A DNA stretch of 64,000 bases from an uncultured Gammaproteobacteria bacterium (GCA_963705725.1 CAVPKM010000017.1:105391-169390); one strand, 5' to 3'; counted from the first letter of the stretch, positions 236 through 43,884 are shown. Notes: generated by a model not told the origin, from the letters alone. Program-made: numbers and translations.

Positions 236-464
236 AGTCAAGGAGGCAAAAACAGTCAGATTTTCACCATCTCTCGAACAATATCCGGTAAGGATTGAGT
301 TGCTGTTTGCTCTTGAAGTTTCTGGATAAGTTGGATGAATTTCTTGGTCATTTGCTCAACGTAATCTCTGTCAAGCAATAAGCGGCAGACCTCGTTGCGA
401 TACGATCAGGGTTGGCATGCTGTTGGATGAGTTCGGTGACAATACGTTCTCGTTCTTCAGCAAT
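236..464 (-). pseudogene. Duplicated, degenerate 3' end of lpxB plus ~20 bp downstream (direct repeat of 2139..2362)
   Basis: Near-identical to 2139..2362, with a 1-bp deletion (ctcgttgcga vs ctcgtttgcga), a 6-bp duplication (cgttct x2) and several substitutions. Confidence 0.95.
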
Positions 465-493
465 TTTTTTCATCCTGATCCTTTTGCGGATTA

Positions 494-2074
494 TCAAAGG
501 TTTGGCCTTCTTCTGGGGTCGGAGCTTGTTTGTTTTTCGCATGCTAGTAATGAGATTAATTGCGGCGTATGTTGATTAATCTTACATCCCACCAAGCCGA
601 GTTGACCTCGATCATTATCTCCAAAAGCATAGAGCGAGCCATTCTCACATAGAACTAGGCTATAGCAAATACCAACTGCCATGAGAATAGGTTTTTTATC
701 TTGAAAAAAAGAAATGCATTGCGGCGTATTTCGAGAATAGTTATGTCCCAAACCGAGTTGACCATAACTATTAAATCCAAAAGCATAGAGCGAGCCATCC
801 TCACATAAAACTAGGCTATGCCAATAACCAGCTGCGATCAGAATAGGTTTTTTATCTTGAAAAAAAGAAATGAATTGCGGCGTATTTTGAAAATAAAAAT
901 GCCCCAAACCGAGTTGACCATAACTATTATCTCCAAAAGCATAGAGCGAGCCATCTTCACACAAAACTAGGTTATGCCGACCACTAGCTGCGATCAGAAT
1001 AGGTTTTTTATCTTGAAAAAAAGAAATGAATTGCGGCGTATGTTGATCATCAACATGCCCCAAGCCGAGTTGACCCTGATGATTATATCCAAAACCATAG
1101 AGCGAGCCATCCTCACATATAACTAGGCTATGCCAACAACCAACTGCCATGAGAATAGGTTTTTTATCTTGAAAAAAAGAAATGAATTGCGGCGTATTTT
1201 GATCATCAAAATGCCCCAAGCCGAGTTGACCTCGATCATTCTCTCCAAAAGCATAGAGCAAGCCATCCTCACACAAAACTAGGCTGTGATTATCGCCAAC
1301 TGCCATCAGAATAGGCTGTTTATCTTGAAAAAAAGAAATGCATTGTGGCGTATGTTGATCATCAAAATGCCCCAAGCCGAGTTGGCCCTTATTATTTCTT
1401 CCAAAAGCATAGAGCAAGCCATCCTCACATAAAACTAGGCTGTGATTATCGCCAACTACCATCAGAATAGGCTGTTTATCTTGAAAAAAAGAAATGAATT
1501 GCAGCGTAATTTGATTAGTACTGTGGCCTAATCCAAGCTGGCCATAATCATTCGAGCCACAACTCGAAAGCAAGCCATTTTGAAGCACAAGGGTATGGCT
1601 GCCACCTGCTGCGATAATCGTTTTTCGCCACTTCTTTGCTATCTCATTTTTTATATTTTCATCATGGTTGAAAAACCGGCTGGTACAAGCCAAATTTTGT
1701 AAACTCCCCAATGTCATATAGGAAGCCACATTATAAAGCAGAATATCAGCAGGAATGGGCGTCGCTTCGATTGCTCTATCAGGTGAGAAAGTCCATGCTA
1801 ATTGCTTTTGAAGCGCTTGAAGCCTCGAAACATATTGACTTAACGGTGCTTGCTGAATCATCCAGGTTATTTGATTACAAAGTGCTTCACCATCCGCATG
1901 GGATCCCGCCAATTCATAAGCAAGTAGCTTTCCATCAAAAGCATTTAATTCCCTGGCAATAGAATGACATAATTCCCTGTTTGTTCCTCTTAGCGTAATT
2001 ACGATCTCTCTGTAGATAGCGGACCAAAATGGATGAAGTGCTTCAGTTTCTGATAACATAGAGAAATTCCTCAT
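494..2074 (-). CDS. RCC1-repeat (7-blade) protein with an N-terminal F-box-like motif; candidate secreted effector
   Basis: Seven ~52-aa repeats G..HSLVLCEDG.LYAFG.N..GQLGLGH; F-box-like IPADILLYNVASYMTLGSLQNLACTSRFFN just before the repeats. Confidence 0.9.
   Translation of the reverse strand: MRNFSMLSETEALHPFWSAIYREIVITLRGTNRELCHSIARELNAFDGKLLAYELAGSHADGEALCNQITWMIQQAPLSQYVSRLQALQKQLAWTFSPDRAIEATPIPADILLYNVASYMTLGSLQNLACTSRFFNHDENIKNEIAKKWRKTIIAAGGSHTLVLQNGLLSSCGSNDYGQLGLGHSTNQITLQFISFFQDKQPILMVVGDNHSLVLCEDGLLYAFGRNNKGQLGLGHFDDQHTPQCISFFQDKQPILMAVGDNHSLVLCEDGLLYAFGENDRGQLGLGHFDDQNTPQFISFFQDKKPILMAVGCWHSLVICEDGSLYGFGYNHQGQLGLGHVDDQHTPQFISFFQDKKPILIAASGRHNLVLCEDGSLYAFGDNSYGQLGLGHFYFQNTPQFISFFQDKKPILIAAGYWHSLVLCEDGSLYAFGFNSYGQLGLGHNYSRNTPQCISFFQDKKPILMAVGICYSLVLCENGSLYAFGDNDRGQLGLVGCKINQHTPQLISLLACEKQTSSDPRRRPNL
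560..1615. repeat. Tandem 156-bp coding repeats (RCC1 blades)
   Basis: Recurrent tatcttgaaaaaaagaaatg and ccaaaagcatagagc at 156-bp spacing. Confidence 0.92.
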
Positions 2075-2138
2075 AAAAAATTGATTTTATTGATTAGAAA
2101 CATATTTTTTTTACATAATACATATATGGCGCATTGTC

Positions 2139-2362
2139 AGTCAAGGAGGCAAAAGCAGTCAGATTTGCACCATATCTCGAACAATATCGGATAAGGATTG
2201 AGTTGCTGTTTGCTCTTGAAGTTTCTGGATAAGTTGGATGAATTTCTTGGTCATTTGCTCAACGTAATTTCTGTCAAGCAATAAGCGGCAGACCTCGTTT
2301 GCGATACGATCAGGGTTGGCATCCTGTTGGATGAGTTCGGTGACAATACGTTCTTCGGCAAT
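2139..2362. repeat. Direct repeat copy containing the functional lpxB 3' end
   Basis: Matches 236..464. Confidence 0.95.
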
Positions 2363-3298
2363 AATATTGCATAAACCCACGTGAGGAGTATGAATAAGTA
2401 ATTTACCCAGAAAGTAAGTGAGTGGGGAAAGTTTATAAATGATAACCATGGGTCTTTTTAATAACGCCACTTCAAGCGTTGCGGTACCAGAAGCCACGAT
2501 TAACGCATCACAGGATGCCATCATGTTGTAATGAGATTGACAAATTGTGATGGATAAAGCCGTTTGTTTTAAAAAGGGCTGTAAATCCTTAGCGGTGAGT
2601 GTGGGGGCGAGGGGTAGGACAAAATGACTGTTAGGAAAGATTTTTTGTAAGTTTTCAGCTGCTTTAAGCATGACAGGAAGGAGGCGTGTTAACTCCCCCT
2701 TCCTACTTCCTGGCATGAGTCCAATTAGTTTGGTTTGAGCTGTCACCCCCATTGCCAGCCGGCTTTCTGAGGGGGAAGCATTGGCTGTTACCTGGGTAAC
2801 TAGTGGGTTGCCGACAAATTTGACAGGAATTTTTTGTTGTTGATAAATGGCGACTTCAAAAGGAAAAATCACTGCCATCAAGTCAATATATTTTTTGATA
2901 TGATAAATTCGATTGTAACGCCATGCCCAGAGCTGTGGACTGATATAATATAAAATTTTAATATTAGGATTGCTATTTTTAATTGCTTTAGCTAGGCGAA
3001 GGTTAAATCCCGGATAATCAATTAAAATAATTAATTGGGGTTCAAGTGTTTTGATCGCTGCTAAGATTTTTTTAAATGTCTTTTTAATAAGATTAAGCTT
3101 ACTGATCACTTCGACAAAACCGACAACAGCAAGCGGTGTTGAGTCGACGATAATTTTGGCACCAGCTGCTTTAAGCCCTTTGCCGCCCATTGCATAAAAT
3201 TGAATGAGAGAAGGTTGCAGTAGGTGGATTAAATGCGCCCCATGAAGATCTCCAGAGGCTTCTCCTGAAATAATAAAAACACGTGGATTTAAAGCCAT
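2159..3298 (-). CDS. lpxB: Lipid-A-disaccharide synthase
   Basis: GEASGDLHGA, IDYPGFNL, SPQLWAWR, PGSR and SGTATLE motifs. Confidence 0.97.
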   Translation of the reverse strand: MALNPRVFIISGEASGDLHGAHLIHLLQPSLIQFYAMGGKGLKAAGAKIIVDSTPLAVVGFVEVISKLNLIKKTFKKILAAIKTLEPQLIILIDYPGFNLRLAKAIKNSNPNIKILYYISPQLWAWRYNRIYHIKKYIDLMAVIFPFEVAIYQQQKIPVKFVGNPLVTQVTANASPSESRLAMGVTAQTKLIGLMPGSRKGELTRLLPVMLKAAENLQKIFPNSHFVLPLAPTLTAKDLQPFLKQTALSITICQSHYNMMASCDALIVASGTATLEVALLKRPMVIIYKLSPLTYFLGKLLIHTPHVGLCNIIAEERIVTELIQQDANPDRIANEVCRLLLDRNYVEQMTKKFIQLIQKLQEQTATQSLSDIVRDMVQI

Positions 3299-3300
3299 AT

Positions 3301-4278
3301 TTAGCTCTTAGAAGCAAAGCCGGCGGCTTCATCACGAGCAAGTTGTTCAGCAACAATGCGAGTAATTTCAACGGCAGTGGCTAGAGCGCGCTTTCCTTCT
3401 TCTCCTGTTACTACAGGAGGGGTAAGGGTTTGTATTGAATTCAAAAAAGCTGCGATCTCATCCATCAAGGCATCACCTTGTTCAAAGGCTTGTTCTTCAC
3501 TGATAATTTCCGGGATGCCAGGAAACATTTCACTGACCCCCTTGCGGTGGATGGCAAGCTCCTTGGTGTGAAGATCAAGAGAAATAAATGCATCATGCTG
3601 AAAAATTCTAAGCTTACGTTCAACTTTAAAGCTTACTCGGCTGGCAGTCACATTCGCCACGCAGCCATTTTCGAATTGTAATCTGACATTGGCAATATCA
3701 ATATGAGAGGATAAAACTGATGCGCCATTTGCGTGAATGTTAGTGATGGGCGAGTTAACAATACGTTGAATAATATCGATATCATGAATCATTAAATCAA
3801 GGACGACATTGATATCGGTGCCACGTGGCTTAAATGGCGCTAGCCTGATTGATTCTATAAAACGCGGATTGTCTAAAATCGTATCCAGCGCAACTAATAC
3901 GGTATTGAAACGCTCTAAATGTCCAATTTGAAAAACTCTAGCATGTTGATTCGCAATTTCGATTAAGCTTTCTGCTTCTTGAACCGTTGAAGCGATCGGT
4001 TTTTCAAGAAGAACATGAACATTATTTTCAAGAAAAAATTTGGCGATCGGATAATGAAGGAAAGTGGGAACTGCAATGCTAACAGCATCGATTTTACCGA
4101 GTAGTTTAGTATAGTCTGTTAACGCAGTCACATTATGCTGCCTGGCAATCACTTGGCAACGCTCCTCGTGAATATCACAAACAGCAATTAACTTTGATTG
4201 AGGAAGCAGGGCAAATTTTTCGGCATGAAATTTGCCTAAATATCCGACACCGATTACAGCAGTTCTGATTTTATTCAT
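3301..4278 (-). CDS. Gfo/Idh/MocA oxidoreductase, probably a GnnA-like UDP-GlcNAc 3-dehydrogenase
   Basis: GVGYLG, EKP, GHLERFN and DLMIHDID motifs; 2 bp upstream of lpxB. Confidence 0.85.
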   Translation of the reverse strand: MNKIRTAVIGVGYLGKFHAEKFALLPQSKLIAVCDIHEERCQVIARQHNVTALTDYTKLLGKIDAVSIAVPTFLHYPIAKFFLENNVHVLLEKPIASTVQEAESLIEIANQHARVFQIGHLERFNTVLVALDTILDNPRFIESIRLAPFKPRGTDINVVLDLMIHDIDIIQRIVNSPITNIHANGASVLSSHIDIANVRLQFENGCVANVTASRVSFKVERKLRIFQHDAFISLDLHTKELAIHRKGVSEMFPGIPEIISEEQAFEQGDALMDEIAAFLNSIQTLTPPVVTGEEGKRALATAVEITRIVAEQLARDEAAGFASKS

Positions 4279-4444
4279 TCAGATAGGTTACCTCGATATT
4301 AATTTCGCTAAGCGCCATAAATTATGGATAAATATTTGAGTTGATAAGTATCTATGATAAATTCGCGAAATGGTCGCACTTTTTTTGCACATAATCAATG
4401 TGTATCTCTAGCTTCCCTCACGAAGGGTCGAGTTTCTTAATATA

Positions 4445-5083
4445 TTGAAAACCAGGAATCAGTCATTGTCTAATAAAAAAATAAAAAATTCCTGCTTGAT
4501 TGCTGGTGTGGATGAAGCAGGTCGAGGGCCTTTAGCCGGGCCTGTGGTAGCGGCCGCAGTGATTTTAAACCATCAAAAGCCCATTAAAGGATTGGCCGAT
4601 TCAAAAACCCTAACGGAAAAAAAACGGAAAGAACTTTACGATAAAATTGTTGAAAATAGTCTTTCATGGAGTGTCGGGCGGGCTGAGGTCGAAGAAATTG
4701 ATACAATTAATATCTTGCAAGCAAGTTTACTTGCAATGCGCCGTGCCGTTCTTGGATTGTCTATCAGACCAACAGAAGTATTGGTAGACGGGAATATTTG
4801 TCCAGAAATTCCTTATCCAGTTAGTGCTATTATTGCGGGTGATCAATTCGTTCAAGAAATTAGCGCCGCTTCTATCATCGCTAAGGTCACGAGAGATAAA
4901 GAAATGATAACTTTAGATGCAATTTATCCAAATTATGGTTTTGCGAGGCATAAGGGATATTCCACAAAGGAACATGTAGATAATCTCAATCATTACGGTG
5001 CAACAGAGATACATCGACGTTCGTTTGAACCGGTAAGACGAGTGGTGGAGCAGGGAATCTTGGCACTCGACAGTGACTCATGA
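4445..5083 (+). CDS. rnhB: Ribonuclease HII
   Basis: [32 protein letters not shown] and HRRSF motifs. Confidence 0.97.
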
Positions 5084-8000: not shown

Positions 8001-8532
8001 GGACATTAAACCCAATAAGGAAAAAACAATAACCATAGCGGGGTTGGTTTTAGGAATAAAGCCAATCTTTACGAAGAAAGGCAATCGTATGGGAGTGCTG
8101 ACTTTAGATGATCGTAGTGGGCGGATTGAAATAATCGTATTTTCTGAACTTTTTGCAGAATGTAGAGAATTGATAGAAACCGAAGCGTTTCTTGTCGTTG
8201 AAGGTGAAGTCAGTATCGATGCCTATACAGAAAGCTATCGAATGACAGCCCGAAAAATACTCGGACTAGAACAACTAAGAAACCAAGCGAAAAGTATTCA
8301 ATTAACCTTGTTTGCTGAAAACTGCAATGCTGAGAAAATTCGATGCTTAACGGATGTGCTTGCTGCCCATCGTGGCGGTCAAAGTCAAGTAGATATTTTT
8401 TATAAGCGAGAAACAGGTAGTGCCCAGATAACTTTGGGTAAGGAATGGAAAGTTCGTATTACCGCTTCACTCATTAACCAGCTGCAAGAAATTTTTAATT
8501 TAAATATAGAATTATTATCAGTAATTTATTAA
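5080..8532 (+). CDS. dnaE: DNA polymerase III alpha subunit
   Basis: PHP domain HTEYS..DG, GPGRGS, PDFDIDF, KFDFLGL; follows rnhB. Confidence 0.98.
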
Positions 8533-8580
8533 TATATTTGATTTAAGCTAATTCAATACAAATGCAGCGGGGAATTCGGT

Positions 8581-10440
8581 ATGTTAGAGCAATATAGCCA
8601 GCTTAACTTGGAGCTAATTAAAAAAATCTATAATGAAAATATTGGCAGCGATCTGCTTTTAGGTGAAATTATTGATTTAGGCTTTTTTGCAGATTGCCCC
8701 GACCTCTTTATCGCCACGTTTAAAGAAGCGCTTAGAAAAAATAATCAAATTACTAAAATAGGTCTAATTAAGCCTTCTTCGGAAGTTGCCGCTATCGTGT
8801 TACCTGTGTTACTTGATCCTGAAAACCATCTTTCCATTCTCGCTCTACACAATCCCCAAGAAGAAGCCATAGTGACGTTGCTGCCAATATTTGAAAATTT
8901 AAATAGTAAAATAGAAATTTTAGATTTAAGCCAAACGTTAGAAGGAAGTGAAGGGGCACTGCCAGTTGTTACGCGTTTAGGAGAAGCATTAAAAAATAGA
9001 CATTGTCAGATTACTCAACTGAATCTGTATATTCAGCCTATGGGGTCTGCCATGATACTTGCTAATTATCTGAAACATATCAGGCAAATTCATACCCTGA
9101 GCTTTTTTGAGCCCACGGAGGAGGTGTTTGCAGCCTTTACGTCGGTTTTCAGTGATGAAAATGGTTCAAACAGAATCCGACGATTAGGGTTAGTGAATCC
9201 TTCGCTTATGGTAATCATCCATCTGAAGGCGGTGCTTTCGCATTGTAGTAGTATTGATCACCTTGAACTCGATAGTCTTACAACAGAAGTAATTCTGGCT
9301 CTCGTGCCTTCATTGTCGTCAAGCACTAATAAAGTGTTATCCTTAACATATCGAGGTAACGAACAGTCTTTATACTGGTTAGGTGAAGGATTAAAAAATT
9401 ATGTTGCGTCACCAGTTATTATCTTGCCCGATTCTCTGTCTTATTCACCTAATTGCCAAAATTATTTTCTCGAATTTAATAATCAGATAAAACAAAATCG
9501 AATAACCAGATCACAATATCAACCTCCATTAACAGCTGTTCCTCCGATAAATTCTTATCAAATTATCAACCAAATGACTTCACAAGTGCCAACGACTGAG
9601 CCACCTACTCATTTATCTCCTAGGCAACTAGCTGAAATTCAAATTGTTAACACAAACTCAGGTTATTACTATACCCCAGTTAAAACCTCAAACCCAAGTT
9701 CCGCTCCGGAACCTGTAAAAATTTTTGATCCAATTAAGGTCAGGGAGGTGGTTCAAAGATTACGTGGTAATCAACATATCCATGATGACTGCACTGCACT
9801 GGCTAAGCGCCTCATTGAATACTTCCAGACAGGTAAAATGCCTACCTGCGCCGCCAAAAAAGAAGAGGCAAATTTATTACTCAAGTTGTCGACTATTGAG
9901 GGAGTGGATGAAGGTTGGTCCTACGACATAGTAACAGATCTGGATATTGTGCGAAGCAAAAGCAAGTTCCCCAATATTCCCTGTAATATAGATACGCCGA
10001 CAACTCCAGGGGGTAGTGATGACCTACAAGCGCCTTTTGTTGTTAATGAAAATGAGTACACGCCAGCAGGAATGCACTATGAGGAATTGGACGACTACCT
10101 TAAGCAACTTGCAGCCAATGAAGAAGACGAAATTATTTTTGGCACAGTCATTTTGAATAGATGTGGACTTTTTGTTAGAGCAGATGGCCATGTGCTAGTG
10201 GTTTGTGCGACACCTGATGAAACTTGGTATGTGGATCCTCAATTTTATGATGGCAGCACACATTATGATAGGGGATGCATCTTCAATCGTTTAGTGGATG
10301 CTTTTTCATTCGGCGATCAAGGTGACTTAACTATAAACACTTTTGGTGAATATGTATTTTTTCTCCCAGCCTTTAAGGCCGGGTCAGAATATCGGCCAAT
10401 GGATATTGATGAAAATAACTTACCAAGACCGTCATTCTAA
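8581..10440 (+). CDS. Hypothetical effector-like protein: leucine-rich-repeat-like N-terminus, P/S/T linker, putative papain-fold C-terminus
   Basis: Repeated I..L.L spacing in the first ~280 aa; C-terminal DDCTALA...GHVLVV...WYVDPQ. Confidence 0.7.
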   Translation: MLEQYSQLNLELIKKIYNENIGSDLLLGEIIDLGFFADCPDLFIATFKEALRKNNQITKIGLIKPSSEVAAIVLPVLLDPENHLSILALHNPQEEAIVTLLPIFENLNSKIEILDLSQTLEGSEGALPVVTRLGEALKNRHCQITQLNLYIQPMGSAMILANYLKHIRQIHTLSFFEPTEEVFAAFTSVFSDENGSNRIRRLGLVNPSLMVIIHLKAVLSHCSSIDHLELDSLTTEVILALVPSLSSSTNKVLSLTYRGNEQSLYWLGEGLKNYVASPVIILPDSLSYSPNCQNYFLEFNNQIKQNRITRSQYQPPLTAVPPINSYQIINQMTSQVPTTEPPTHLSPRQLAEIQIVNTNSGYYYTPVKTSNPSSAPEPVKIFDPIKVREVVQRLRGNQHIHDDCTALAKRLIEYFQTGKMPTCAAKKEEANLLLKLSTIEGVDEGWSYDIVTDLDIVRSKSKFPNIPCNIDTPTTPGGSDDLQAPFVVNENEYTPAGMHYEELDDYLKQLAANEEDEIIFGTVILNRCGLFVRADGHVLVVCATPDETWYVDPQFYDGSTHYDRGCIFNRLVDAFSFGDQGDLTINTFGEYVFFLPAFKAGSEYRPMDIDENNLPRPSF

Positions 10441-11106: not shown

Positions 11107-11174
11107 TGTTTTACTCGTGCGTTAATACAGATTAAGGTATGATTCCTAACTTATATACCTCGAGGAGTCAGTCT

Positions 11175-13808: not shown

Positions 13809-13841
13809 TGTAACTGCACAAATGCTAGAAGTCGCTAAACG

Positions 13842-30082: not shown

Positions 30083-30131
30083 AAATATCATGCTATAAAC
30101 TACCAATTAGCAGAACATTTATGAGAGCGAT

Positions 30132-30728: not shown

Positions 30729-31675
30729 GCCAGGGTCATGTCATGCTAGACCTTGAAGGTTGTGCGTTGACAATGCTTGAAAAAGAAATCCTAGCGCATC
30801 CACAGACAGGTGGCATTATTCTTTTTTCTCGGAATTATGAATCAAAAAAACAACTGACTGCCTTAACTAAAGCAATTCGCAAGATAAAGGGGGCGATGCT
30901 CATTGCAGTCGATCAAGAAGGCGGCAGAGTCCAGCGTTTTAAACAAGAATTTACTTGTTTACCTCCCTTCAGCGCTTATGGTGAACGTTATGATCAGGAG
31001 CAAGAAGCGGCTTTGGAGTATGCCAAGAAAATGGCCTATTGCATGGCAAAAGAACTCCTTGATTGTGGCGTAAATGTGAGCTTTTCGCCAGTACTAGATA
31101 TAGATCATGGTAAAAGTGAAGTGATTCTAGATCGTAGTTTTCATCAAGATAAAGCAGTGGTTATCGAGTTAGCTCGTGCCTTTATCGCTGGCATGCACCA
31201 AGCAAAAATGCCAGCAACTGGAAAGCACTTTCCGGGTCATGGCGCGGTGAAAGCCGATTCACATCACACCTTGCCAGTTGATTCGCGTTCTTTTGAAGAA
31301 ATAGCATCGAGTGATCTACAGCCATTTTGCAAATTACGTGATGACTTGGATGGAATGATGCCATCTCATATTTTATACGAAGCTGTAGATACCGCTCCTA
31401 CTTGTTTTTCATCGAAGTGGTTAGAAGATATTTTGCGACAACAAATTGGTTTTCAGGGAGTGATTTTTAGTGATGATTTAAGCATGGCAGGGGCAAAATT
31501 TTTCACTGATTTGGTAGAACGGGCAGAAAAAGCCCTAACAGCAGGTTGTGACATGGTATTGGTTTGCAATCAGCAAGAACAAGCAATTCGTGTCATCTCG
31601 CATCTTGAAAAATATCATCATCCCCTTTCAGAGCAACGTTTACAGCGGTTTACAGCAATTCCTGCATGGAGATAA
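30725..31675 (+). CDS. nagZ: Beta-N-acetylhexosaminidase
   Basis: DQEGGRVQR, KHFPGHG...DSH, SDDLSM motifs. Confidence 0.96.
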   Translation: MSQGHVMLDLEGCALTMLEKEILAHPQTGGIILFSRNYESKKQLTALTKAIRKIKGAMLIAVDQEGGRVQRFKQEFTCLPPFSAYGERYDQEQEAALEYAKKMAYCMAKELLDCGVNVSFSPVLDIDHGKSEVILDRSFHQDKAVVIELARAFIAGMHQAKMPATGKHFPGHGAVKADSHHTLPVDSRSFEEIASSDLQPFCKLRDDLDGMMPSHILYEAVDTAPTCFSSKWLEDILRQQIGFQGVIFSDDLSMAGAKFFTDLVERAEKALTAGCDMVLVCNQQEQAIRVISHLEKYHHPLSEQRLQRFTAIPAWR

Positions 31676-31679
31676 AGTC

Positions 31680-32246
31680 TTGATTAAAATTCCTGAGGAT
31701 ATTCGTGTTATTTACGAAAAAGCAACGTGTATCCATTCGCGAGAAGCAGTTGAACACGCGCTAGATGATATGGCACTTGCTATTTCAAAGGAAGTTTCTG
31801 AGGTTTATCCCGTTTTTTTATGCGTGGTGGTGGGTGGAATTATTCCACTTGGAAATTTGTTAACACGCATTATCTTTCCATTAGAAATTAATTATATACA
31901 TGCAACTCGCTATCGAGGGGCATTAGTTGGCTCTGATTTAATTTGGCAAGCAAAACCGACCTGCTCGTTAAAAGACAAGGTCGTGGTTATTGTTGATGAC
32001 ATTTTAGACAGCGGACTGACACTGTCAGAAATTATTCGTTATTGTGAAGAGCAGGGTGCTAAAAAAGTCTTAACAGCAGTTTTAGTGGATAAGCACCACG
32101 CAAGACAGCCAGGAGGTTTAAAGAAAGCGGATTTCACCGGGCTAGTAGTAGATGGCCATCATTATGTCTTTGGTTATGGAATGGATTATCGCAACTATCT
32201 GCGTAATGCACCGGGTATTTTTGCTATTTCACCTGAACATCAATAA
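31680..32246 (+). CDS. hpt: Hypoxanthine-guanine phosphoribosyltransferase
   Basis: HATRYRG, IVDDILDSG.TL, YVFGYGMDY; TTG start at 31680 after GGAG. Confidence 0.92.
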   Translation: MIKIPEDIRVIYEKATCIHSREAVEHALDDMALAISKEVSEVYPVFLCVVVGGIIPLGNLLTRIIFPLEINYIHATRYRGALVGSDLIWQAKPTCSLKDKVVVIVDDILDSGLTLSEIIRYCEEQGAKKVLTAVLVDKHHARQPGGLKKADFTGLVVDGHHYVFGYGMDYRNYLRNAPGIFAISPEHQ

Positions 32247-32368
32247 GTGAATTTAGCGATACCCTTCAAGGGGAGTTTCCTTATAAACATATATTAAGCA
32301 TAAAAAATATTCCAAAAAAATAAAAATAATGTATTATTAGATTTTTTTATTGATTTGGTGGGTTTGTA

Positions 32369-35362: not shown

Positions 35363-35426
35363 AAACAACTAAGCTCTATAGGTTTACGGTAAATAGGTGT
35401 ATGTTTTAAATTAATGAGATTGAAAA

Positions 35427-38195
35427 ATGTTTGGAAATAATCGAGAAACCAATTCGTCGCACCATTCGTCAAATAATGAAGAAGAATGGATAGATCATTA
35501 TCATACTGATGAACGAGTGTATCGTCGTCAAAGTTCTAATCCACCACGTGCCTATTATCATCCGTCAAGCCATTCAATGTCTTCTCGTCAAGTAACCCGC
35601 ACAAATGATGGTAATAAAACTAATAAGTTTAGAAAAAAGACAATAATTAATCCACGGATGGTGAGTGATTATTTAATTCATTATAATCCAAATAAAATTT
35701 CAGAATTTAAAACCATTTTATTGAACCATGACGATTTTCTACCAGCATGGCTCTGTGAGTCTATTATTCGAAAACTGACAGATCACTTAATACGAGATAA
35801 GCAATTAAGAAACGAATTGTTACCCATTGTGAATTTTGCATTTAATAAAATTGATGAAGTTATAAAAAATAGCTCTGAAGCTTCAGACATGTGCACCATC
35901 AACCACATTGCTTACTTTTTTGAAAAGGCAACTAAATGGATTGATAGAGAAAATAAAGAAAGTTTTACTTTTGGATTATCAGTTGATACCTGTCAGGTTT
36001 TAATCAATAAGTTTGAAAATTCTGTTAAATTGTCAGGAGGACAGGTAGCTTCATTTTTTTCTGGTATCTCAATATTGGTAAAAGATGGATATATTACTAA
36101 AAAAATTAGCTTTAAGAAGATAGATTACTTACTTTCTTATTTGAAGGAAGATCGCTCTATTTACACAGCATTTTTTTCTTTTGATGAATTTATTAAAGCA
36201 AAGGTATTTTGCAGTTATATAAAAGCGAAAACCATCAAATCAATGCTATTTAGCATGTTTGATTCTCCTCATGACAAAATTCATAATAATCTTGAAGTTA
36301 GTGTGGTTACTCTAGCTAAATTATTTGCAGGAGGTTTCATCTTGCCGGATAATACACTCTTTGATGATTATGTAAAAGCACTAACGTGGTATTATTCAAA
36401 AAATTTAATAATGTCAATTAATATTATTGATAAAATTTTCTTTATATTTAAATTCTTTGCGATTAATAAATTTATCATAAGCCAGATCGATTCTTCATTT
36501 ATAAATAAAATACTTCGTATTGCATTAAGATCGGATCAACTCTTTGGGAAAAATATATTCAATATTATTTCAGCAATTACATCATTGGTGGAAGAAAAAT
36601 TTCTTGCACCATTTAAAAGTGAGGATGTTGATCAATTATTTATGCGTTATTCACCTCACTCTGAGTTTTGTGATTTTACTCTTATCACGCTTAATAATTA
36701 TTTTAGAATTAACACTATAAAAGGAATGGCGAGAATTAGTGATCAAGTGGTAAAAAATTTAATTGATCATTTTGTGTCGATGCCTTCAATAGAGCTAGAA
36801 AATGTGTATTATGCAATCTTTTGCATTAAGAGATTGGGTGAGGAGGGGCTGCTTACCGAAGAGGTAACTAATCACTGTCTAAAAACTCTGGTTACTCGCT
36901 TATCAAAATTTCCTGATATTACTTCTCGTCATATTTATGCTATTTCTTCTTGTCTTATAGCGATTGATCAGTTAGCGACAATTAATCTTGGTATCGATGA
37001 GGTAATCGAATACTTTATTTCTAATGTGCTGGTTTTAAGTGATTCAAAATATGCTACTCATGCGGCTTCAGGGTTTTTTTATATAGCACGTTTAGTTAAA
37101 AATAATTTTCTTAATATAAAACATGCTAGTTTGAAAAACTTAATTTCCTCTCTTTTACGTTTTCCCGATATTCGTACTAAAGCAATACACCATGTGTTTA
37201 ATGGTATAAGAATATTATCTAAAGTAATGGAAGGTGAAGAAATAAACAAACTTTTCCAAGCATTTATAGAAGGCATTACTTACCTTAAAGAAAATAACGA
37301 TAACAACGCTTATAAGGTAAGCTTTTTAACTTCTCTAATATCAATACTTTCTCTTGAGATTAATAAAAAGACATCATTAGAAAATAAATCTACAGAAATA
37401 GATATATTTATTGAAGATGATCAGGATGAAGGCGAAATTTTTTCTCAAACTGATTTGCTAACCTTTGAAGAAGGCAATTATTATGCTTCTTATTACTCTT
37501 CAAGCTCTGAAGATTGGGAAGGTTTTGCAGAAAATCTTTATTCATCAGATTTTTACAATGAGAATTTGGGAATTGAACCAGTTCCAGCTAATTTATCTGC
37601 GAGAAATAATAGACAAAATTTACCGTATGAGGATCTTTTTTTTGAGGATGCAGATGTTGGTTGCCCGGTGTTTGAACAAAAAATAGAAGGAGACGGAGTC
37701 GGCAATCCTTGTCCTTTTGCTGCTGTGACTGTGACAGATTTGAAGTTTGAGCAAACGTCTTCTCCTAATTCAGTAGAGGAAGTAAAACCCACCCTAGCTA
37801 TCACCCCTCCATCACTTTTTTTTACCATACCTAAAGATGTTTGGGACACTCATAAAAAGAGAAAACAGCCTGAAACTGAACAAGATTTTCCAGCTACTAA
37901 AAAATTAAAACTAGCAAAAGATACAAATATATCTGCCTTCCTAGTGCGATTATCTTTCACACAAAGAATGAAATCGTTAGATTTAGATATTCCAACACTA
38001 AGTCAACTAGAGAGAAAGTTGTTACGGAAGCTTTATATTAACCATAAAAAAGTGAATGGAAAATATCGGTTAACCGTTCAAGATTTCGGGTTATTTAATG
38101 AATTCTATCAAAGAATGATGCGCAAGCATTCTATGCAACCCTCTTCAGAAGAAGAGAGAAAATCTTTCGCTCAAGACTCGTCTCAAAAGAGATAA
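35427..38195 (+). CDS. Large orphan protein, paralog 2 (5' half like paralog 3, 3' half like paralog 1)
   Basis: 922 aa; best match switches near 36875. Confidence 0.85.
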   Translation: MFGNNRETNSSHHSSNNEEEWIDHYHTDERVYRRQSSNPPRAYYHPSSHSMSSRQVTRTNDGNKTNKFRKKTIINPRMVSDYLIHYNPNKISEFKTILLNHDDFLPAWLCESIIRKLTDHLIRDKQLRNELLPIVNFAFNKIDEVIKNSSEASDMCTINHIAYFFEKATKWIDRENKESFTFGLSVDTCQVLINKFENSVKLSGGQVASFFSGISILVKDGYITKKISFKKIDYLLSYLKEDRSIYTAFFSFDEFIKAKVFCSYIKAKTIKSMLFSMFDSPHDKIHNNLEVSVVTLAKLFAGGFILPDNTLFDDYVKALTWYYSKNLIMSINIIDKIFFIFKFFAINKFIISQIDSSFINKILRIALRSDQLFGKNIFNIISAITSLVEEKFLAPFKSEDVDQLFMRYSPHSEFCDFTLITLNNYFRINTIKGMARISDQVVKNLIDHFVSMPSIELENVYYAIFCIKRLGEEGLLTEEVTNHCLKTLVTRLSKFPDITSRHIYAISSCLIAIDQLATINLGIDEVIEYFISNVLVLSDSKYATHAASGFFYIARLVKNNFLNIKHASLKNLISSLLRFPDIRTKAIHHVFNGIRILSKVMEGEEINKLFQAFIEGITYLKENNDNNAYKVSFLTSLISILSLEINKKTSLENKSTEIDIFIEDDQDEGEIFSQTDLLTFEEGNYYASYYSSSSEDWEGFAENLYSSDFYNENLGIEPVPANLSARNNRQNLPYEDLFFEDADVGCPVFEQKIEGDGVGNPCPFAAVTVTDLKFEQTSSPNSVEEVKPTLAITPPSLFFTIPKDVWDTHKKRKQPETEQDFPATKKLKLAKDTNISAFLVRLSFTQRMKSLDLDIPTLSQLERKLLRKLYINHKKVNGKYRLTVQDFGLFNEFYQRMMRKHSMQPSSEEERKSFAQDSSQKR

Positions 38196-38270
38196 ACATA
38201 AGTAAGGTTTATAAATTAAATTTAGATTTATGGTAAATAGGTGTATTTTTTAAATTAGTGAGATTGAAAA

Positions 38271-41039
38271 ATGTTTAGAAATATTGGAGAAACCAAACCG
38301 TCCCATTCATCAGATAATGAAGAAGAATGGATAGATCATTATGAAACTGATGAACGAGTGTATCGTCGTCAAAATTATTATTCGCAAGGTTCCTCTTCTC
38401 ATCAAGTAACCCGCACGAATGATGGTAATAAAACTAATAAGTTTAGAAAAAAGACAATAATCGATGCACGGATGGTGAGTGATTATTTAATTCATTATAA
38501 TCCAAATAAAATTTCCGAATTTAAAACTATTTTATTGAACCATGACGATTTTCTACCAGCATGGCTCTGTGAGTCTATTATTCGAAAACTGACAGATCAC
38601 TTAATACGAGATAAGCAATTAAGAAACGAATTGTTACCCATTGTGAATTTTGCATTTAATAAAATTGATGAAGTTATAAAAAATAGCTCTGAAGCTTCAG
38701 ACATGTGCGTCATCAACCACCTTCCTTTCCTTTTTGAAAAGGCAACTAAATGGATTGATAGAGAAAATAAAGAAAGTTTTAATTTTGGATTATCAGTTGA
38801 TACCTGTCAGATTTTAATCAATAAGTTTGAAAATTCTGTTAAATTGTCAGGAGGGCAGGTAGCTTCATTTTTTTCTGGTATCTCAATATTGGTAAAAGAT
38901 GGATATATTACTAAAGAAATTAGATTTAATAAGCTAGATTACCTACTTTCTTATTTGCAGGGAGCTCGCTCTATTTACACAGCATTTTTTTCTTTTAATG
39001 AATTTATTCAAGCAAAGGTATTTTGCAATAAAATAAAAGCGAAAACCATCAAATCAATGTTATTAAGCATGTTTGATTCTCCTCAAGCTAAAATTCAGCA
39101 TAATCTTGAAGTTAGTGTGGCTACTTTTGCTAAATTACTCGCAGGAGGTTTCATCTTGCCGGATAATACAATCTTTGATGATTACGTAAAAGCGCTAACG
39201 TGTTATTATTCAAAAAATGTAACAATATTAACCTATATTATTGATAAAATTTTCTTTATTTTTAAATTCTTTGCGATTAATAAATTTATCATAAACCAGC
39301 TAGATTCTTCATTTATAAATAAAATACTTCATATTGCATTAAGATCGGATAAACTCCTTGGAAAAAATATATTCAATATTATTTCAGCAATTGTATCATT
39401 GGTGGAAAAAAAATTTCTTGCGCCATTTGAAAATGAGGACGTTGATCAATTATTCCTGCGTTTTATACCTCACCCTGGGCTTTGTTATTTTACTCTTAAC
39501 ACGCTTAATAATTATTTTAGAATTAACACTATAAAAGGAATGGCGAGAATTAGTGATCAAGTGGTAAAAAATTTAATTGATCATTTTGCGTCGATGCCTT
39601 CAATAGAGCTAGAAAATGTGTATTATGCAATCTTTTTCATTAAGAGATCGGGTGAGGAGGGGCTGCTTACCGAAGAGGTAACTAATCACTGTTTAAAAAT
39701 TCTGATTACTCTTTTATCCAAATTTCCTAGTGTTACTGTTTATCATATTTATTTTATTTCTTATTGTCTTAGAACGATTGATCAGTTAGCCACAATTAAT
39801 CTGGATATAGATGATATAATTGAGCAATTTATTTCTAATTTACTGGTTTTAAGTGAGTCAAAATATGCTACTCACGCGGCTTTAGCGTTTTTTTATATAA
39901 CGCGTTTAGAAAAAAATAATTTTATTAACATAAAAAATTCCAGTCTGAAAAACCTAATTTCCTGTATTTTGCATTCTCCTAATATCCGTATTCAGGCCAT
40001 ACGGCATCTCTTTAATGGTATAAAGATATTATCTGAAATAGGGGAAGATGATAAAACAAACGAACTTCGTCAAGTATTTTTAGAAGGTATTACTTATCTT
40101 AAAGAAAATAACGTTGACAACGCCTATAGGGTAAGCTTTTTGACTTCGATAATATCAATACTTTCTCTTGATATTAATAAAATGACATCATCAGAAAATA
40201 AATCTACAGACATAGATATAATTATGTCTGATGACGAGGATAAAATTTTTCCTCAACCCGAGTTAATGATATTTGATGAAGCTAATTATTATGGTTCTTA
40301 TTACTCATCAAGTGACTCTGAAGAGTGGGAGGATTTTGTAGAAAACCTTTATTCACCTGGTTTTTCTGATGAAAATTTTCAACTTGAACCTGCTCGAATT
40401 GAATTAAATTTATCTGCGAAAAACAATGCCAAAAATTCATCGTTCCGGGAAAATATATTTGGAAATTATGATCATAAAATAGAGGATACCGAAGGGTGTT
40501 ACCAAGTGTTTGATCAAGATATAGAAGAAGTAGGGAATACCTGTCCTTTTGCTGCTATTACAAATTTGGAAATTGAGCAAAAGCAGCCCTATTTTGGTGA
40601 GTTGTCTACTGCTTCAGCTAAGGAAGTAAATCCCACCCTATCTATCTCATCTGGATCAACTTTTTTCTCCTCAAAATCTATAACTGATTCGCAGTCGCAG
40701 TCTCATAAAAGAAAAAGGCCTGAAAATGAACCAATTTTTTTCCCACCTAATAAAAAATCAAAACTAGGAAAAGATACAAACCTATCTGCCTTACTAGCAC
40801 GATTATCTTTCACAAGAAAAATAAACTCCTTGGATTTAGATATTCCAACACTGAGTAAACAAGAGAGAGGATTGTTAAATAAACTTTATATTAGGCATAA
40901 AAAAGTGAATGGAAGATATCGATTAACAGTTGAAGGTTTCGAATTATTTAATGAGAGTTATCAAAGAATGAAACGTAAACTTTCTGCTGAAAAACCTTTG
41001 GAAGATGAAACAAAATCTTATTTAACTAGCAAGCAGTAA
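38271..41039 (+). CDS. Large orphan protein, paralog 3
   Basis: 922 aa; paralogous to the two preceding ORFs. Confidence 0.85.
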   Translation: MFRNIGETKPSHSSDNEEEWIDHYETDERVYRRQNYYSQGSSSHQVTRTNDGNKTNKFRKKTIIDARMVSDYLIHYNPNKISEFKTILLNHDDFLPAWLCESIIRKLTDHLIRDKQLRNELLPIVNFAFNKIDEVIKNSSEASDMCVINHLPFLFEKATKWIDRENKESFNFGLSVDTCQILINKFENSVKLSGGQVASFFSGISILVKDGYITKEIRFNKLDYLLSYLQGARSIYTAFFSFNEFIQAKVFCNKIKAKTIKSMLLSMFDSPQAKIQHNLEVSVATFAKLLAGGFILPDNTIFDDYVKALTCYYSKNVTILTYIIDKIFFIFKFFAINKFIINQLDSSFINKILHIALRSDKLLGKNIFNIISAIVSLVEKKFLAPFENEDVDQLFLRFIPHPGLCYFTLNTLNNYFRINTIKGMARISDQVVKNLIDHFASMPSIELENVYYAIFFIKRSGEEGLLTEEVTNHCLKILITLLSKFPSVTVYHIYFISYCLRTIDQLATINLDIDDIIEQFISNLLVLSESKYATHAALAFFYITRLEKNNFINIKNSSLKNLISCILHSPNIRIQAIRHLFNGIKILSEIGEDDKTNELRQVFLEGITYLKENNVDNAYRVSFLTSIISILSLDINKMTSSENKSTDIDIIMSDDEDKIFPQPELMIFDEANYYGSYYSSSDSEEWEDFVENLYSPGFSDENFQLEPARIELNLSAKNNAKNSSFRENIFGNYDHKIEDTEGCYQVFDQDIEEVGNTCPFAAITNLEIEQKQPYFGELSTASAKEVNPTLSISSGSTFFSSKSITDSQSQSHKRKRPENEPIFFPPNKKSKLGKDTNLSALLARLSFTRKINSLDLDIPTLSKQERGLLNKLYIRHKKVNGRYRLTVEGFELFNESYQRMKRKLSAEKPLEDETKSYLTSKQ

Positions 41040-41093
41040 TGCTCAAATCATACTGGTTGGTTTGTTGCATTATTAAAAAAAGCATGCTTAAAT

Positions 41094-41188
41094 CTTCTCA
41101 TCAGGGGTGCATCAGCTGAGAGAATCTACTTAAGAAGATTCAACCCTTTGAACCTGACTGGGGTAATCCCCGCGTAGGGAGATGAGAA
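41094..41188 (+). ncRNA. TPP riboswitch (THI box)
   Basis: GGGGTGC..GCTGAGA..ACCCTTTGAACCTGA..GGGTAAT.CC.GCGTAGGGA core with P1 ttctcatc/gatgagaa; directly upstream of a TenA-family gene. Confidence 0.95.
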
Positions 41189-41228
41189 TGTAAACAATGA
41201 TATTCCTATCATTGCATCCGCTTTTTCT

Positions 41229-41260
41229 ACTCCCTTTGGCTTTTTTTTACACCAAAGGAG
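41229..41260 (+). promoter_or_regulatory. RBS-sequestering hairpin, the probable riboswitch expression platform
   Basis: ctccctttgg can pair with ccaaaggag, which contains the SD of ATG 41269. Confidence 0.7.
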
Positions 41261-41268
41261 AACGTCAC

Positions 41269-41943
41269 ATGCTTTATCCACAATTAATGGGTCTATCAAA
41301 AAAATTATGGCAGCATAGCCAGCCTACCTTCCACAAAATTACTCAAACACCACTTGTAACAGGTTTAATTGAAGGGTTAACTACAGAAGAATTTCATCGA
41401 TTTACTCAGCAAGATATTTATTATCTTGAACAAAGTTTTCAGCCCGCGATGAAGATCCTCAGCCAAAAAGCTAGTTTGCAAAGCCATCACCAATTATTTT
41501 CTGATTGGATTGCTGCCACAAATGTTGAGTTGTCTCAACTAAAGAAGCAGCTTTCCTTGGTCTATACCGACACCATGATTCCACCTTCTGAAATTTGCGA
41601 AAAATATGGAAAACATCTTTTGGAAACCACCAGCAATCAATCCTATAGTATAGGTGTTGCCGCTTGTTTACCTTGTTTTTTATTTTTTCCAGCAGTAGGT
41701 CTGCATATTAAAAAGCGTGTACCTGATTTAGCCGGTCATCCTCAAGTAGAATGGATAAAAGTATATGCAGATGAATTATTTGATAACGCCTATCACATGG
41801 CTGCGTTTGCTAATGAAGTCATTTCTAAAGAAGATGAACCCGCTGCTTTAAAAGCCTACATGATTTCTGCTGAATTCGAACTTTGCTTTTTTGAAGATGC
41901 CTTGAAGGTAGAAAACAGCCAATCTTATTTTATGATGGAGTGA
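41269..41943 (+). CDS. tenA: TenA/THI-4 family protein (thiamine salvage, thiaminase II-like)
   Basis: F..F.QQD..YL, AACLPC, WI..Y, E..FF motifs; TPP riboswitch upstream. Confidence 0.85.
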   Translation: MLYPQLMGLSKKLWQHSQPTFHKITQTPLVTGLIEGLTTEEFHRFTQQDIYYLEQSFQPAMKILSQKASLQSHHQLFSDWIAATNVELSQLKKQLSLVYTDTMIPPSEICEKYGKHLLETTSNQSYSIGVAACLPCFLFFPAVGLHIKKRVPDLAGHPQVEWIKVYADELFDNAYHMAAFANEVISKEDEPAALKAYMISAEFELCFFEDALKVENSQSYFMME

Positions 41944-42338
41944 AGTTACGATAATTTCGCTGGCGTTAACAGGGTTAGTAATTGCTTAATTAATTTTATT
42001 TGTAACTACTTGGCCCAGCAAGGAAACGTCCATATTTGGCCATCTTTGAACGAAAAACCCGCTGAAAACTGCTCACATATTTATATGTGCTGCACTTTTT
42101 CAGCGAATTTTTCGTTCAGATATGGCTCAAATATGAACGTTTGTGCGTTGAACAGACTCTTACCCCGTGAGCAGTTACTTTTATTTTTTCATTTGGATTA
42201 TTGTCTAATAGTTTAAATTTAAGCGATTTCGAACCTTCTAGCTGATAAATTCTGGGTTGTTTTTGAATTAAATTTAATAGGGCAGTTAAATTAATTTTTG
42301 ACTCTATGTCAAATTCGATTTTTCCATGCAACGCACCT
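41847..42338. repeat. Direct repeat copy A (functional tenA 3' end + dead mfd 3' end interrupted by a MITE)
   Basis: 307 bp after removing the insertion; matches 43572..43884. Confidence 0.95.
42002..42178. mobile_element. 177-bp non-autonomous palindromic element (MITE-like)
   Basis: Absent from repeat copy B; 8-bp duplication ttttattt (41994-42001, 42179-42186); ends gtaactactt / gagcagttac; ~55-bp-arm internal hairpin 42024..42142. Confidence 0.92.
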
Positions 42339-43257
42339 AACTAAACTTCGGATCAAAAATCAAAGTGCTTTAAAAAACACGGTGTTGCTTACCATATAAG
42401 TGGAGGTACAATAATAAGTTCAATTACCTATTTGTTACAAGAAGAAATAGAATGGCAATTAAGGATGCAATTGAACTTAACCCTACCTTAAAAATTAATC
42501 AACCGCATGATAAACTACTCAAGCGACTCCTCTCCAATATTGTCACAACTCGTGAAATTCTTGAAGCTTACTTACCTGAAGAGGTAAAAAATTTCGTTGA
42601 CTTGAATCACTTGAGCGACAATCAGATTCTTTTGTCGATGCCGAACATCGCTTCCTAGAAGTCGACATTTTGTTTAAAACCCGTTGTAAATTAACGCAGG
42701 AAGATTGTCATATCTGGGTCCTCATCGAGCAGCAAAGACAGCCCGATGCCTGGATGCCGCTTCGTTTATTTTGTTACCTGGGGGTGATCTGGGATCATGT
42801 ACGAAAAGCTTCAAAAACTCGGGGCAAATCTGCCAAAATTCCTTTTGTTTATCCCTTGGTGATTTCTAATGCCTCGAGGCCATATCGGCATTCGTTAACC
42901 CTTCGAGATATGGTAGAGCCTGAAGCTGCCAAGCCATTGTTTGATAAATTATTTAATTCTCCGACTCAGCTGATTGATTTAGCTGCCTTACCTGATGAAG
43001 CGCTAAGGGTTCAGCTTCAGGGAGGCATTCAAGCGCTAGTGTTATTACTAAGCTTGAAGCATATTTATGACAAAAACTTATCAGATTATTTAGAATCCGA
43101 CTTGGTTGTCTTGCTTCAAGCATTAGAAGAACAGGGTTATAGAGATGAGGTAGTAGATTTGTTATATTATCTCTATTCTGAGGGAAATTTAAGCCATTCA
43201 TCTAAATTTTGGCCATTTTTACACCGAAAGTTTTCAAAAGAAGTAGAGGAGGAAGTC

Positions 43258-43527
43258 ATGACTTTGAGGCAACAAGATATACAGCAAGGGGAGCAGCGAG
43301 GGTGGGAGCAAGGGCTACAGCAAGGGTTGGAACAAGGGGAACAGAAGGGGTTAACACGAGGGTTAGAACAAGGAGAACAAAAGGGGTTACAGCAAGGCAC
43401 GCAAAAAGCCTTACAAGAAACCGCATTACGAATGCTGCAAAATAAACAGTTTAAAATAGAAACCATAGCCGAAATAACTCAATTATCAATAGCTGAAATT
43501 GAGTCTCTAGCGAAAAAAGAAGGTTAA
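43258..43527 (+). CDS. Predicted intragenic small protein (RpnS-type antitoxin), 89 aa
   Basis: GAGGAGG SD just upstream of in-frame ATG 43258 (MTLRQQDIQQGEQRG...). Confidence 0.7.
   Translation: MTLRQQDIQQGEQRGWEQGLQQGLEQGEQKGLTRGLEQGEQKGLQQGTQKALQETALRMLQNKQFKIETIAEITQLSIAEIESLAKKEG
43285..43397 (+). repeat. 12-bp tandem coding repeats (xxQG / xxKG / xxRG)
   Basis: caaggggagcag cgagggtgggag caagggctacag caagggttggaa... Confidence 0.85.
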
Positions 43528-43571
43528 TCTTTTGTTGATGGCACAAACTCTCGAAATGAAGAATCAGATGT

Positions 43572-43884
43572 TTTAAAAGCCTACATGATTTCTTGCTGAA
43601 TTCGAACTTTGCTTTTTTGAAGATGCCTTGAAGGTAGAAAACAGCCAATCTTATTTATGTCATGATGGAGTGAAGTTTACGATAATTTCGTTGGCGCTAA
43701 CAGGGTTAGTAATTGCTTAATTAATTTTATTTTTTCATTTGGATTATTGTCTAATAGTTTAAATTTAAGCGATTTAGAACCTTCTAGCTGATAAATTTTG
43801 GGTTGTTTTTGAATTAAATTTAATAGGGCAGTTAAATTAATTTTTGGCTCTATGTCGAATTCGATTTTTCCATGCAACGCACCT
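43572..43884. repeat. Direct repeat copy B (dead tenA 3' end + functional mfd 3' end)
   Basis: 313 bp; the tenA-derived part carries +1 and +4 bp indels relative to copy A. Confidence 0.95.

Follow-up and report, generated by a model that had tools for sequence, protein, structure and literature searches.

Insertion with long target duplication (ILTD), described by Nobusato et al. (2000, Gene 259:99) and by Furuta, Abe & Kobayashi (2010, Nucleic Acids Research (NAR), PMC2853133), is a rearrangement in which genes without a mobility gene lie between direct duplications of 30 to ~420 bp that are variable and unique. In the available text of the latter survey, the inserts are restriction-modification (R-M) systems of all types, mostly in naturally competent species, e.g. 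Helicobacter, Haemophilus and Neisseria. The repeats sometimes overlap the 3' end of a neighboring gene, and amplification via the repeats was shown; the mechanism is left unexplained there, with double-strand breakage by the nuclease of the cargo as a suggestion. Here, we describe two insertions of this kind in a stretch of 64,000 nucleotides (the window, G000:C17:105391-169390) from an uncultured gammaproteobacterium, G000, whose genome comprises 1.58 Mb in 20 contigs with ~39% G+C. One is an RCC1-repeat gene at the end of lpxB, the other an rpn unit at the ends of a TenA-like gene and mfd, and three further insertions of the same type are found elsewhere in the genome.

Two other known systems bear comparison with these loci. 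The transposed genes of Arabidopsis (Woodhouse, Pedersen & Freeling 2010, PMC2869330) are likewise non-transposon genes between direct repeats, with a single copy of the repeat at the orthologous empty site. As far as the available text goes, their repeats are often genic and insertion of a circular recombination product was proposed, but the host is a eukaryote and its repeats are in many cases associated with tandem arrays of genes at the donor locus. On the other hand, the accessible part of Zhong 2023 (PMC10400941) describes rpn genes as units with variable ends that lack terminal repeats and target duplications and do not transpose autonomously. The rpn genes studied here share with such Rpn (YhgA-like) units (Kingston 2017, PMC5350276; PMC10400941) the single-gene unit, the variable ends, the lack of inverted repeats, the tandem arrays formed by duplication and the variable number of C-terminal repeats (322-362 aa here). 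They differ from the published description in that the target is duplicated around one rpn here (336-bp copies) and around one in a congener (47-bp copies).

The GTDB order to which G000 belongs consists of this genus only, with five genomes (G000 and its congeners G001-G004). The congeners are genus-level relatives, with ~70% nucleotide identity to G000, and ancestral states were read at the gene level; G001 is an 87%-complete genome. Positions are window coordinates unless a contig (C1, C7, C17 and so on) is prefixed.

Results

Copies of gene ends bracket an RCC1 gene and an rpn unit

At the first locus, a pair of direct repeats (214-450 and 2118-2354; 238 bp, 93.7% identity, E 2.7e-86) brackets the RCC1-repeat gene, with lpxB left intact as originally predicted (Table 1). 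The dead copy is damaged by a 1-bp deletion, which shifts the frame, and by a 6-bp insertion, and the two lpxB copies differ by five non-synonymous changes and one synonymous change. The 3' boundary of the cargo is sharp. Indeed, an RCC1 3' remnant on C1 shares the gene end and the 3' flank up to the exact base at which the lpxB fragment starts, and a 32-nt motif that marks this boundary recurs beside the same remnant (C1:69322-69354) and beside lpxA (window -621..-590). The RCC1 joint shows 2 nt of microhomology (AT), and no source was found elsewhere in the genome for the 50 nt upstream of the RCC1 gene. The order of the islet between lpxA and lpxB is (motif-243-aa gene-lpxB end)(motif-RCC1-lpxB end), an arrangement that resembles a tandem joining of two alternative islet alleles.

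At the second locus, the repeated sequence (X2, ~336 bp) runs across the stop codons of two convergent genes, TenA-like and mfd, that are 3 nt apart. Its right copy is contiguous (43549-43884) and matches 41824-42001 (184 bp, 90.2% identity) and 42175-42338 (164 bp, 97.0%), and here too both genes are intact, as had been proposed. The measured lengths, ~238 and ~336 bp, replace the 225-310 bp first given for the two repeats. The left copy is split by a miniature inverted-repeat transposable element (MITE), which is a later, separate insertion into the dead mfd fragment. Unlike the rpn unit, this element has the anatomy of a classical transposon, as it ends in inverted repeats and is flanked by an 8-bp duplication of its target (TTTTATTT, at 41994-42001 and 42179-42186). 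At the right rpn joint there is patchy, CTCGAAATG-like microhomology.

The mfd and TenA-like copies differ by three non-synonymous and three synonymous changes, and both amino-acid changes in mfd are derived in the dead copy. At both loci, frameshifting indels are confined to the dead fragments, and overall the copy differences are mostly non-synonymous. These differences fit neutral decay of a redundant copy. Assigning the copies to a donor or a recipient from the substitutions was tried and abandoned, since the sites are too few, the LpxB tail is poorly conserved, and the mfd changes fit decay under every model.

The same arrangement recurs at five loci of the genome

The whole genome was scanned for two-copy local repeats of 30-700 bp with at least 85% identity, 0.4-12 kb apart. 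This returned 16 direct high-scoring segment pairs (HSPs) at 11 loci and one inverted HSP. At five of these loci, the repeats (X) bracket unique cargo in an X-cargo-X arrangement, so that self-alignment adds three cases to the first two. The five X measure 238, 336, 125, 41 and 50 bp, each is present exactly twice in the genome, and the inserts (1.2-7.6 kb) carry unrelated cargoes. A sensitive scan of the window found only the first two cases outside paralog families, and there were no matches in each of five simulated windows, which excludes chance for these two.

In event 3, a 125-bp intergenic X (88% identical) surrounds leuBDCA-lrp-hipBA, between a conserved 424-aa gene and ccmC. The open reading frames (ORFs) of the leu block were named by their first residues and by similarity to G002 proteins, not by Pfam. 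As the leu proteins are 33-50% identical to those of G002, compared with 55-80% for core genes, the leu genes look as if they had been acquired separately. A relocated native operon was considered and rejected, given this low identity and the finding that the flanks of the G002 leu genes have no homologs in G000. The ccm operon is normally contiguous; the 424-aa ORF (C7:46736-48010), which has no Pfam match, lies between ccmB and ccmC and is kept in all four congeners. Event 4 is nested inside event 3 as a second event: hipBA (1676 bp; HipA and HTH by Pfam) is bracketed by 41-bp repeats, which run across the older joint between the cargo and the target of the leu block. In event 5, a 50-bp X (98% identical), made up of the last 13 codons of tamB, the stop and 9 nt downstream, lies at a convergent junction and brackets 2.6 kb with two ankyrin-repeat ORFs (Pfam Ank) and one unknown ORF.

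The wider set alters the picture in several respects. The cargoes had been described as single effector-like genes, which does not hold for the bracketed leuBDCA-lrp block and hipBA pair. The targets had been taken for 3' ends of housekeeping genes, and X does straddle stop codons at convergent gene junctions in three of the five events, whereas the other two targets are intergenic and the TenA-like gene is accessory. All five X nevertheless adjoin a conserved gene or operon (lpxB, mfd, upstream of ccmC twice, and tamB). Older, eroded repeats had been expected at other orphan genes, where no flanking repeats were found even at E 0.05.

The remaining six loci are paralog pairs or arrays, an IS66-disrupted paralog and mobile debris, and were rejected as X-cargo-X. 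They comprise small ORFs that are paralogous and surround a RelE-like gene (C13:74.6 kb), an IS66-interrupted paralog (C13:179-192 kb), arrays of small ORFs (C7:103-110 kb), debris of mobile elements (C18:73-76 kb), tandem paralogs at C1:38 kb (judged from the repeat scan alone) and an ankyrin-like family at ~57.7 kb of the window. On C13, two inverted IS66-type elements with three ORFs each (C13:184149-190329) are present, one of which interrupts a paralog of a 560-aa gene. C13 also contains a perfect 212-bp tandem duplication (C13:210021-210444, 100%). In the window, repeated gene segments of ~560-620 bp (families D6, D8, D9 and D11) on the minus strand at 53831-58432 look like tandem paralogous genes for repeat proteins.

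No common site and no tyrosine recombinase were found at the inserts

The absence of a shared att-like sequence, noted in the original prediction, was confirmed for the three long X, which have no word of at least 10 nt in common and contain no tRNA, tmRNA or other RNA genes. Tyrosine recombinases (PF00589) gave no match on C17, C7 and C20 and only two matches genome-wide, both elsewhere; serine recombinases were not searched. As assessed by Pfam and, for the leu block, by similarity to G002 proteins, no integrase or transposase is encoded in the inserts, in which the Pfam matches are to RCC1, Transposase_31 (Rpn, reportedly not a transposase), HipA/HTH and Ank, and there are no R-M genes among the scanned cargo proteins. 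The anatomy is not that of a classical insertion sequence (IS) or transposon, as the left ends of the rpn units vary and the target duplications are 41-336 bp. Neither is it that of site-specific integration, with no integrase nearby and no common att core in the three long repeats. Integration of phages and islands can duplicate the 3' end of a gene, as with the icd fragment found beside e14, and the host gene is kept intact. Our cases resemble this in that a second 3'-end copy beside the insert keeps the host gene intact, but integration needs an integrase and a fixed att core, neither of which was found here (tyrosine recombinases searched).

The rpn unit is cargo rather than agent

There are ~6 copies of rpn in G000, four of which are intact, and the copy in the window is broken. 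Intact paralogs of 322-362 aa on C17 and C13 are 97-98% identical to the window unit. The pieces of the window ORF match Transposase_31 with 33.1 and 63 bits (cut-off 21), and the intact paralogs with ~126-127 bits. The left ends of the units vary between copies, and there are no terminal inverted repeats. Repeats that bracket rpn were found in 1/4 contexts in G000, 2/11 in G002 and 2/27 in other class-level genomes. Since the window copy is broken, rpn is missing from four of the five cargoes and bracketing repeats are missing around most rpn copies, it was not the rpn cargo that brought about the insertions. The cargo that had been described as a recombination-promoting nuclease is a pseudogene.

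In G002, a ~1.24-kb rpn unit (L045:1265-2597) lies tightly between 47-bp copies (95.7%) of the spacer that immediately follows the msrB stop codon. Another candidate in the same genome (L044), with 115-bp repeats around an ihfB-like gene and rpn, is not a clean case, since a truncated hda-like ORF points to a complex rearrangement. At C17:36493-40954 in G000, three rpn units of 1554 bp form an array, with ORFs of 322, 322 and 362 aa that differ in the number of C-terminal EQG-type repeats and with a MITE in each 5' leader. Amplification of the X-rpn-X-rpn-X type was rejected for this array, because its spacers consist of the rpn end, the MITE and ~135 nt of unique sequence without a match to the array flanks. 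The array is a plain tandem duplication.

The insertion sites are variable islets in the genus

Comparison with the congeners shows that the insertion sites are variable islets, with different genes, or none, in each genome. At the lpxA-lpxB junction, lpxB converges on lpxA and overlaps it in G002, one unrelated 298-aa ORF lies between them in G004, and in G000 the intervening DNA holds the 243-aa gene, the lpxB fragment and the RCC1 gene. At the corresponding locus of G001 (L004), lpxB is missing from the syntenic place, and a Gfo/Idh/MocA-like gene directly adjoins lpxA. At the mfd junction, mfd converges in G002 on a homolog of the gene at 31548..32246 of the window, other genes are found in G004 and G001, and G000 has 11.4 kb with three large paralogs, the TenA-like gene and rpn. 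The TenA-like gene has no DNA match in the congeners and no homolog by mfd in the three with a junction that was read; this "target" is itself accessory cargo of the islet. At the ccm site, the leu block is absent in all four relatives, with the flanking genes adjacent in G002 and G004 and ~2 kb apart, with other DNA between them, in G001 and G003. Downstream of tamB, other genes follow in all three relatives compared. No flanking repeats were found in the lpxA-lpxB and mfd islets of the relatives.

A 619-aa ORF without a Pfam match (8581-10440), between dnaE and a gene of the uracil-DNA glycosylase (UDG) family, has no detectable flanking repeat. It is lineage-specific, as G002 and G004 have dnaE directly next to the UDG gene, and a different insert of ~4.2 kb is found in G001.

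Neither a metagenome scan with the TenA-like protein nor one for an exact match to 40 nt of X2 yielded a strain-level relative, and a contig-level genome scan with intact Rpn as a query gave three distant Clostridia matches only. A single soil-metagenome run (contigs) had a word share of 0.11, with matching pieces of 151-308 nt, none of which crosses a joint. An inserted A at 42612 in this material probably derives from another rpn copy.

Features of the two loci

The coordinates of the features at the two loci are given in Table 1.

Table 1. Features of the lpxB/RCC1 and TenA-like/rpn/mfd loci (window coordinates).
Feature	Position	Strand	Remarks
Copy A: dead lpxB 3' fragment and downstream spacer	214..470	-	duplicate of 2118-2365
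32-nt motif with RCC1 stop codon and 3' flank	467..498	-	marks 3' boundary of RCC1 cargo
Cargo 1: RCC1-repeat gene, 526 aa, 7 repeats	494..2074	-	Pfam RCC1
Copy B: functional lpxB 3' end (last 69 codons, stop, ~41 nt downstream)	2118..2365	-	
lpxB, intact, 379 aa	2159..3298	-	Pfam LpxB 6e-98
TenA/THI-4 family gene, intact, 248 aa	41197..41943	+	Pfam
Left X2, part 1: TenA-like 3' end, stop, complement of last ~18 mfd codons	41824..42001	.	
MITE, IS66 type, 177 bp	42002..42178	.	terminal inverted repeats GTAACT.C
Left X2, part 2: dead mfd 3' fragment	42179..42338	-	
Filler at left joint, 25 nt	42339..42363	.	no other source in genome
Cargo 2: rpn (PF04754) unit, ~1.2 kb, pseudogene	42364..43558	+	1-bp deletion, in-frame stops
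Right X2: dead TenA-like 3' fragment (two frameshifting indels), then functional mfd 3' end	43549..43884	.	
mfd (transcription-repair coupling factor), intact, 1167 aa	43677..47180	-	Pfam

The RCC1 gene of the window is one of ~14 in G000, with ~65% nucleotide identity to its paralogs. This expansion amounts to 98 repeat matches, with eight genes in tandem on C1 (C1:1-16000) and others on C3, C9, C16 and C18. The RCC1 3' remnant on C1 is 215 bp long (C1:69322-69537, ~69.4 kb) and flush with a glycosyltransferase-like gene.

Directly upstream of the TenA-like gene there is a thiamine pyrophosphate (TPP) riboswitch (Rfam RF00059, 69.8 bits; 41093-41197), which fits a predicted role of this gene in thiamine salvage. 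Three tandem paralogs of 997, 922 and 922 aa (32369-41039; ~2.8-kb units, 73-98% identical) make up the bulk of the islet at mfd and have no counterpart by mfd in G001, G002 and G004. The two members of this family that were scanned have no Pfam match.

Discussion

The five events are recurrent, well-preserved insertions with long target duplication that carry new kinds of cargo, and not a new system. The survey of Furuta, Abe & Kobayashi (PMC2853133) defines ILTD, in its available text, by an insert of <20 kb, no integrase or transposase, direct repeats of >30 bp that each match a sequence present once at the empty site, and absence of the insert in an aligned relative. The inserts described here are within this size, have no mobility gene and are absent in relatives, which are of the genus level. 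The repeats exceed 30 bp, and their state at an empty site was assessed at the level of genes. Both sets share a gene-sized insert without a mobility gene between long, variable and unique direct duplications (41-336 bp here), an occasional overlap with 3' ends and repeats that can support amplification or loss. Here, however, no cargo is of the R-M type, and RCC1, an rpn pseudogene, leuBDCA-lrp, hipBA and ankyrin genes are found instead; a single small genome holds several events, one of them nested; and a nuclease in the cargo, which those authors suspected, is missing from most cargoes here. We file the events as the same kind of rearrangement because R-M content defined the survey and not the rearrangement. 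Among the best-ranked matches listed for the phrase "insertion with long target duplication", no title names rpn, RCC1, ankyrin or toxin-antitoxin (TA) cargo. The sequence-independent capture system that had been proposed as new is therefore recurrent and indeed sequence-independent, whereas its architecture was already in print.

As to the mechanism, we tentatively prefer, while holding it somewhat short of probable, that the five are independent ILTDs made by the general recombination and repair of the host, via homology-anchored import and one illegitimate joint, without any integrase, transposase or dedicated system for capture. The enzymology that we infer is as follows. DNA would be joined to the chromosome at two points offset by 41-336 bp, which would leave the intervening stretch on both sides of the cargo. 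The incoming fragment would come from a related cell or a sister chromosome in which the cargo already lies beside the same conserved gene. One of its ends would engage in RecA homologous recombination inside the flanking core gene, and the other end, which lacks homology, would be joined by illegitimate ligation slightly further back within the paired stretch, so that the gene end of the recipient is displaced downstream and becomes a dead copy. In a compact genome, only events after which each flanking gene still has one intact copy would pass selection, and the redundant copies would then decay through frameshifts and MITE insertion. Both RecA and ComEC are encoded in G000, and the prevalence of naturally competent species among the published ILTDs (PMC2853133) is in line with this route. 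Straddling of stop codons would follow because, at a convergent gap of 3 nt, only duplication of both ends spares both genes. The tandem layout of the lpxA-lpxB islet is what one anchored crossover and one illegitimate joint would give, and the different genes at the same junctions in congeners indicate that alternative alleles with a shared anchor exist.

Several findings weigh against homology-anchored import. The 32-nt motif match rests on 28/32 identities (E 5.6e-5 within 4 kb). The rpn joints, with the 25-nt filler and a ~12-nt scrambled stretch, are more like end-joining. The rpn cargo is an intragenomic copy, as its identity to the other copies shows, and import would therefore need an earlier illegitimate insertion, i.e. 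two events compared with one for end-joining. A complete Ku/LigD operon is present in G000. Finally, a true empty site and a donor allele were not seen, as no strain-level relative turned up.

The main rival, which we regard as possible but doubtful, is that DNA was captured by end-joining where a break is offset. Two nicks or breaks separated by 41-336 bp, located in opposite strands or in the two sister chromosomes, would be filled in to give X on both ends, and Ku/LigD would ligate a free fragment between them. This fragment may be a copy of the rpn unit or foreign DNA, and the breaks may be made by intact Rpn nucleases, for which G000 has four intact rpn genes. The enzymes are at hand, since an operon for nonhomologous end joining (NHEJ; C9:14448-17686) encodes a LigD 3'-phosphoesterase (206 aa), a LigD ligase with Prim-Pol (610 aa) and Ku (267 aa), and Ku is found in all five genomes of the genus. 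The filler, the scrambled stretch and the ragged cargo ends agree with such a route, for which a single event is enough in the case of rpn. To our knowledge, Helicobacter, Haemophilus and Neisseria lack Ku/LigD; as published ILTDs are largely from such competent species, a Ku-independent route must exist. End-joining moreover requires very long staggers and does not account for the way in which the 32-nt motif recurs in tandem register between lpxA and lpxB. In Sinorhizobium meliloti, Ku/LigD was shown to capture heterologous DNA at breaks in the genome (Dupuy, Sauviac & Bruand 2019, PMC6379672). As in that work, so far as its available text describes it, end-joining here would be a homology-independent insertion of a fragment by host repair with the same enzyme set, but in that study I-SceI generated the breaks.

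A further alternative, which is decidedly unlikely, is replicative template switching or strand annealing at a fork. The nascent strand, or an invading single strand, would copy or bring in the cargo and then restart upstream of its exit point, which would duplicate X. Such a route would account for the microhomology at the right rpn joint and at the RCC1 joint and for the variable length of X, and this genome is prone to duplications, e.g. the array of three 1554-bp rpn units, the eight tandem RCC1 genes and the perfect 212-bp duplication. However, the 25-nt filler has no template in the genome, and the leu cargo, at 7.5 kb and foreign-looking, would need an exogenous template at the fork. 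For the first locus alone, a tandem duplication of [motif-RCC1-lpxB end], followed by replacement of one RCC1 gene by the 243-aa gene, would produce the (A-gene-B)(A-gene-B) register in a genome where tandem duplications are common. We consider it very improbable, because it requires a second step of replacement, exact to the ORF and without any RCC1 coding remnant left behind, and it leaves the other four events unexplained. Transposition catalyzed by Rpn with long target duplications, or att-site integration restoring the gene end, in the manner of phages that target protein genes, is hardly credible: the Pfam name Transposase_31 and the congener's unit between 47-bp copies are in its favor, but it is already contradicted by the four cargoes without rpn, and the broken window copy, the variable unit ends without inverted repeats, the rarity of bracketing repeats, the published features of rpn (no terminal repeats, target duplications or autonomous transposition in the accessible part of PMC10400941) and the lack of a nearby integrase (tyrosine recombinases searched) or shared core sequence all argue against it.

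Because the pattern is already known, the value of this set is incremental. The origin of orphan or effector-like genes that sit between core genes without scars of mobile elements is poorly understood. Five dated footprints of one process, one of them nested and all with cargo other than R-M systems, show that gene gain by ILTD is general rather than peculiar to R-M systems, and the repeats predict easy loss or amplification of the bracketed genes. A complete NHEJ operon and an expanded rpn family in one genome suggest concrete experiments. A bolder proposal, unlikely as we judge it, is that in this lineage eukaryote-like and selfish genes (RCC1, ankyrin, rpn and hipBA) and a biosynthetic operon reach a compact genome mainly by ILTD, with the conserved Ku/LigD module sealing offset breaks, perhaps made by the expanded Rpn nucleases, around free DNA. 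If ILTD were driven by Ku/LigD in this way, a phenomenon that has gone unexplained for 25 years would gain a testable enzymology, and Rpn activity would be linked to gene gain.

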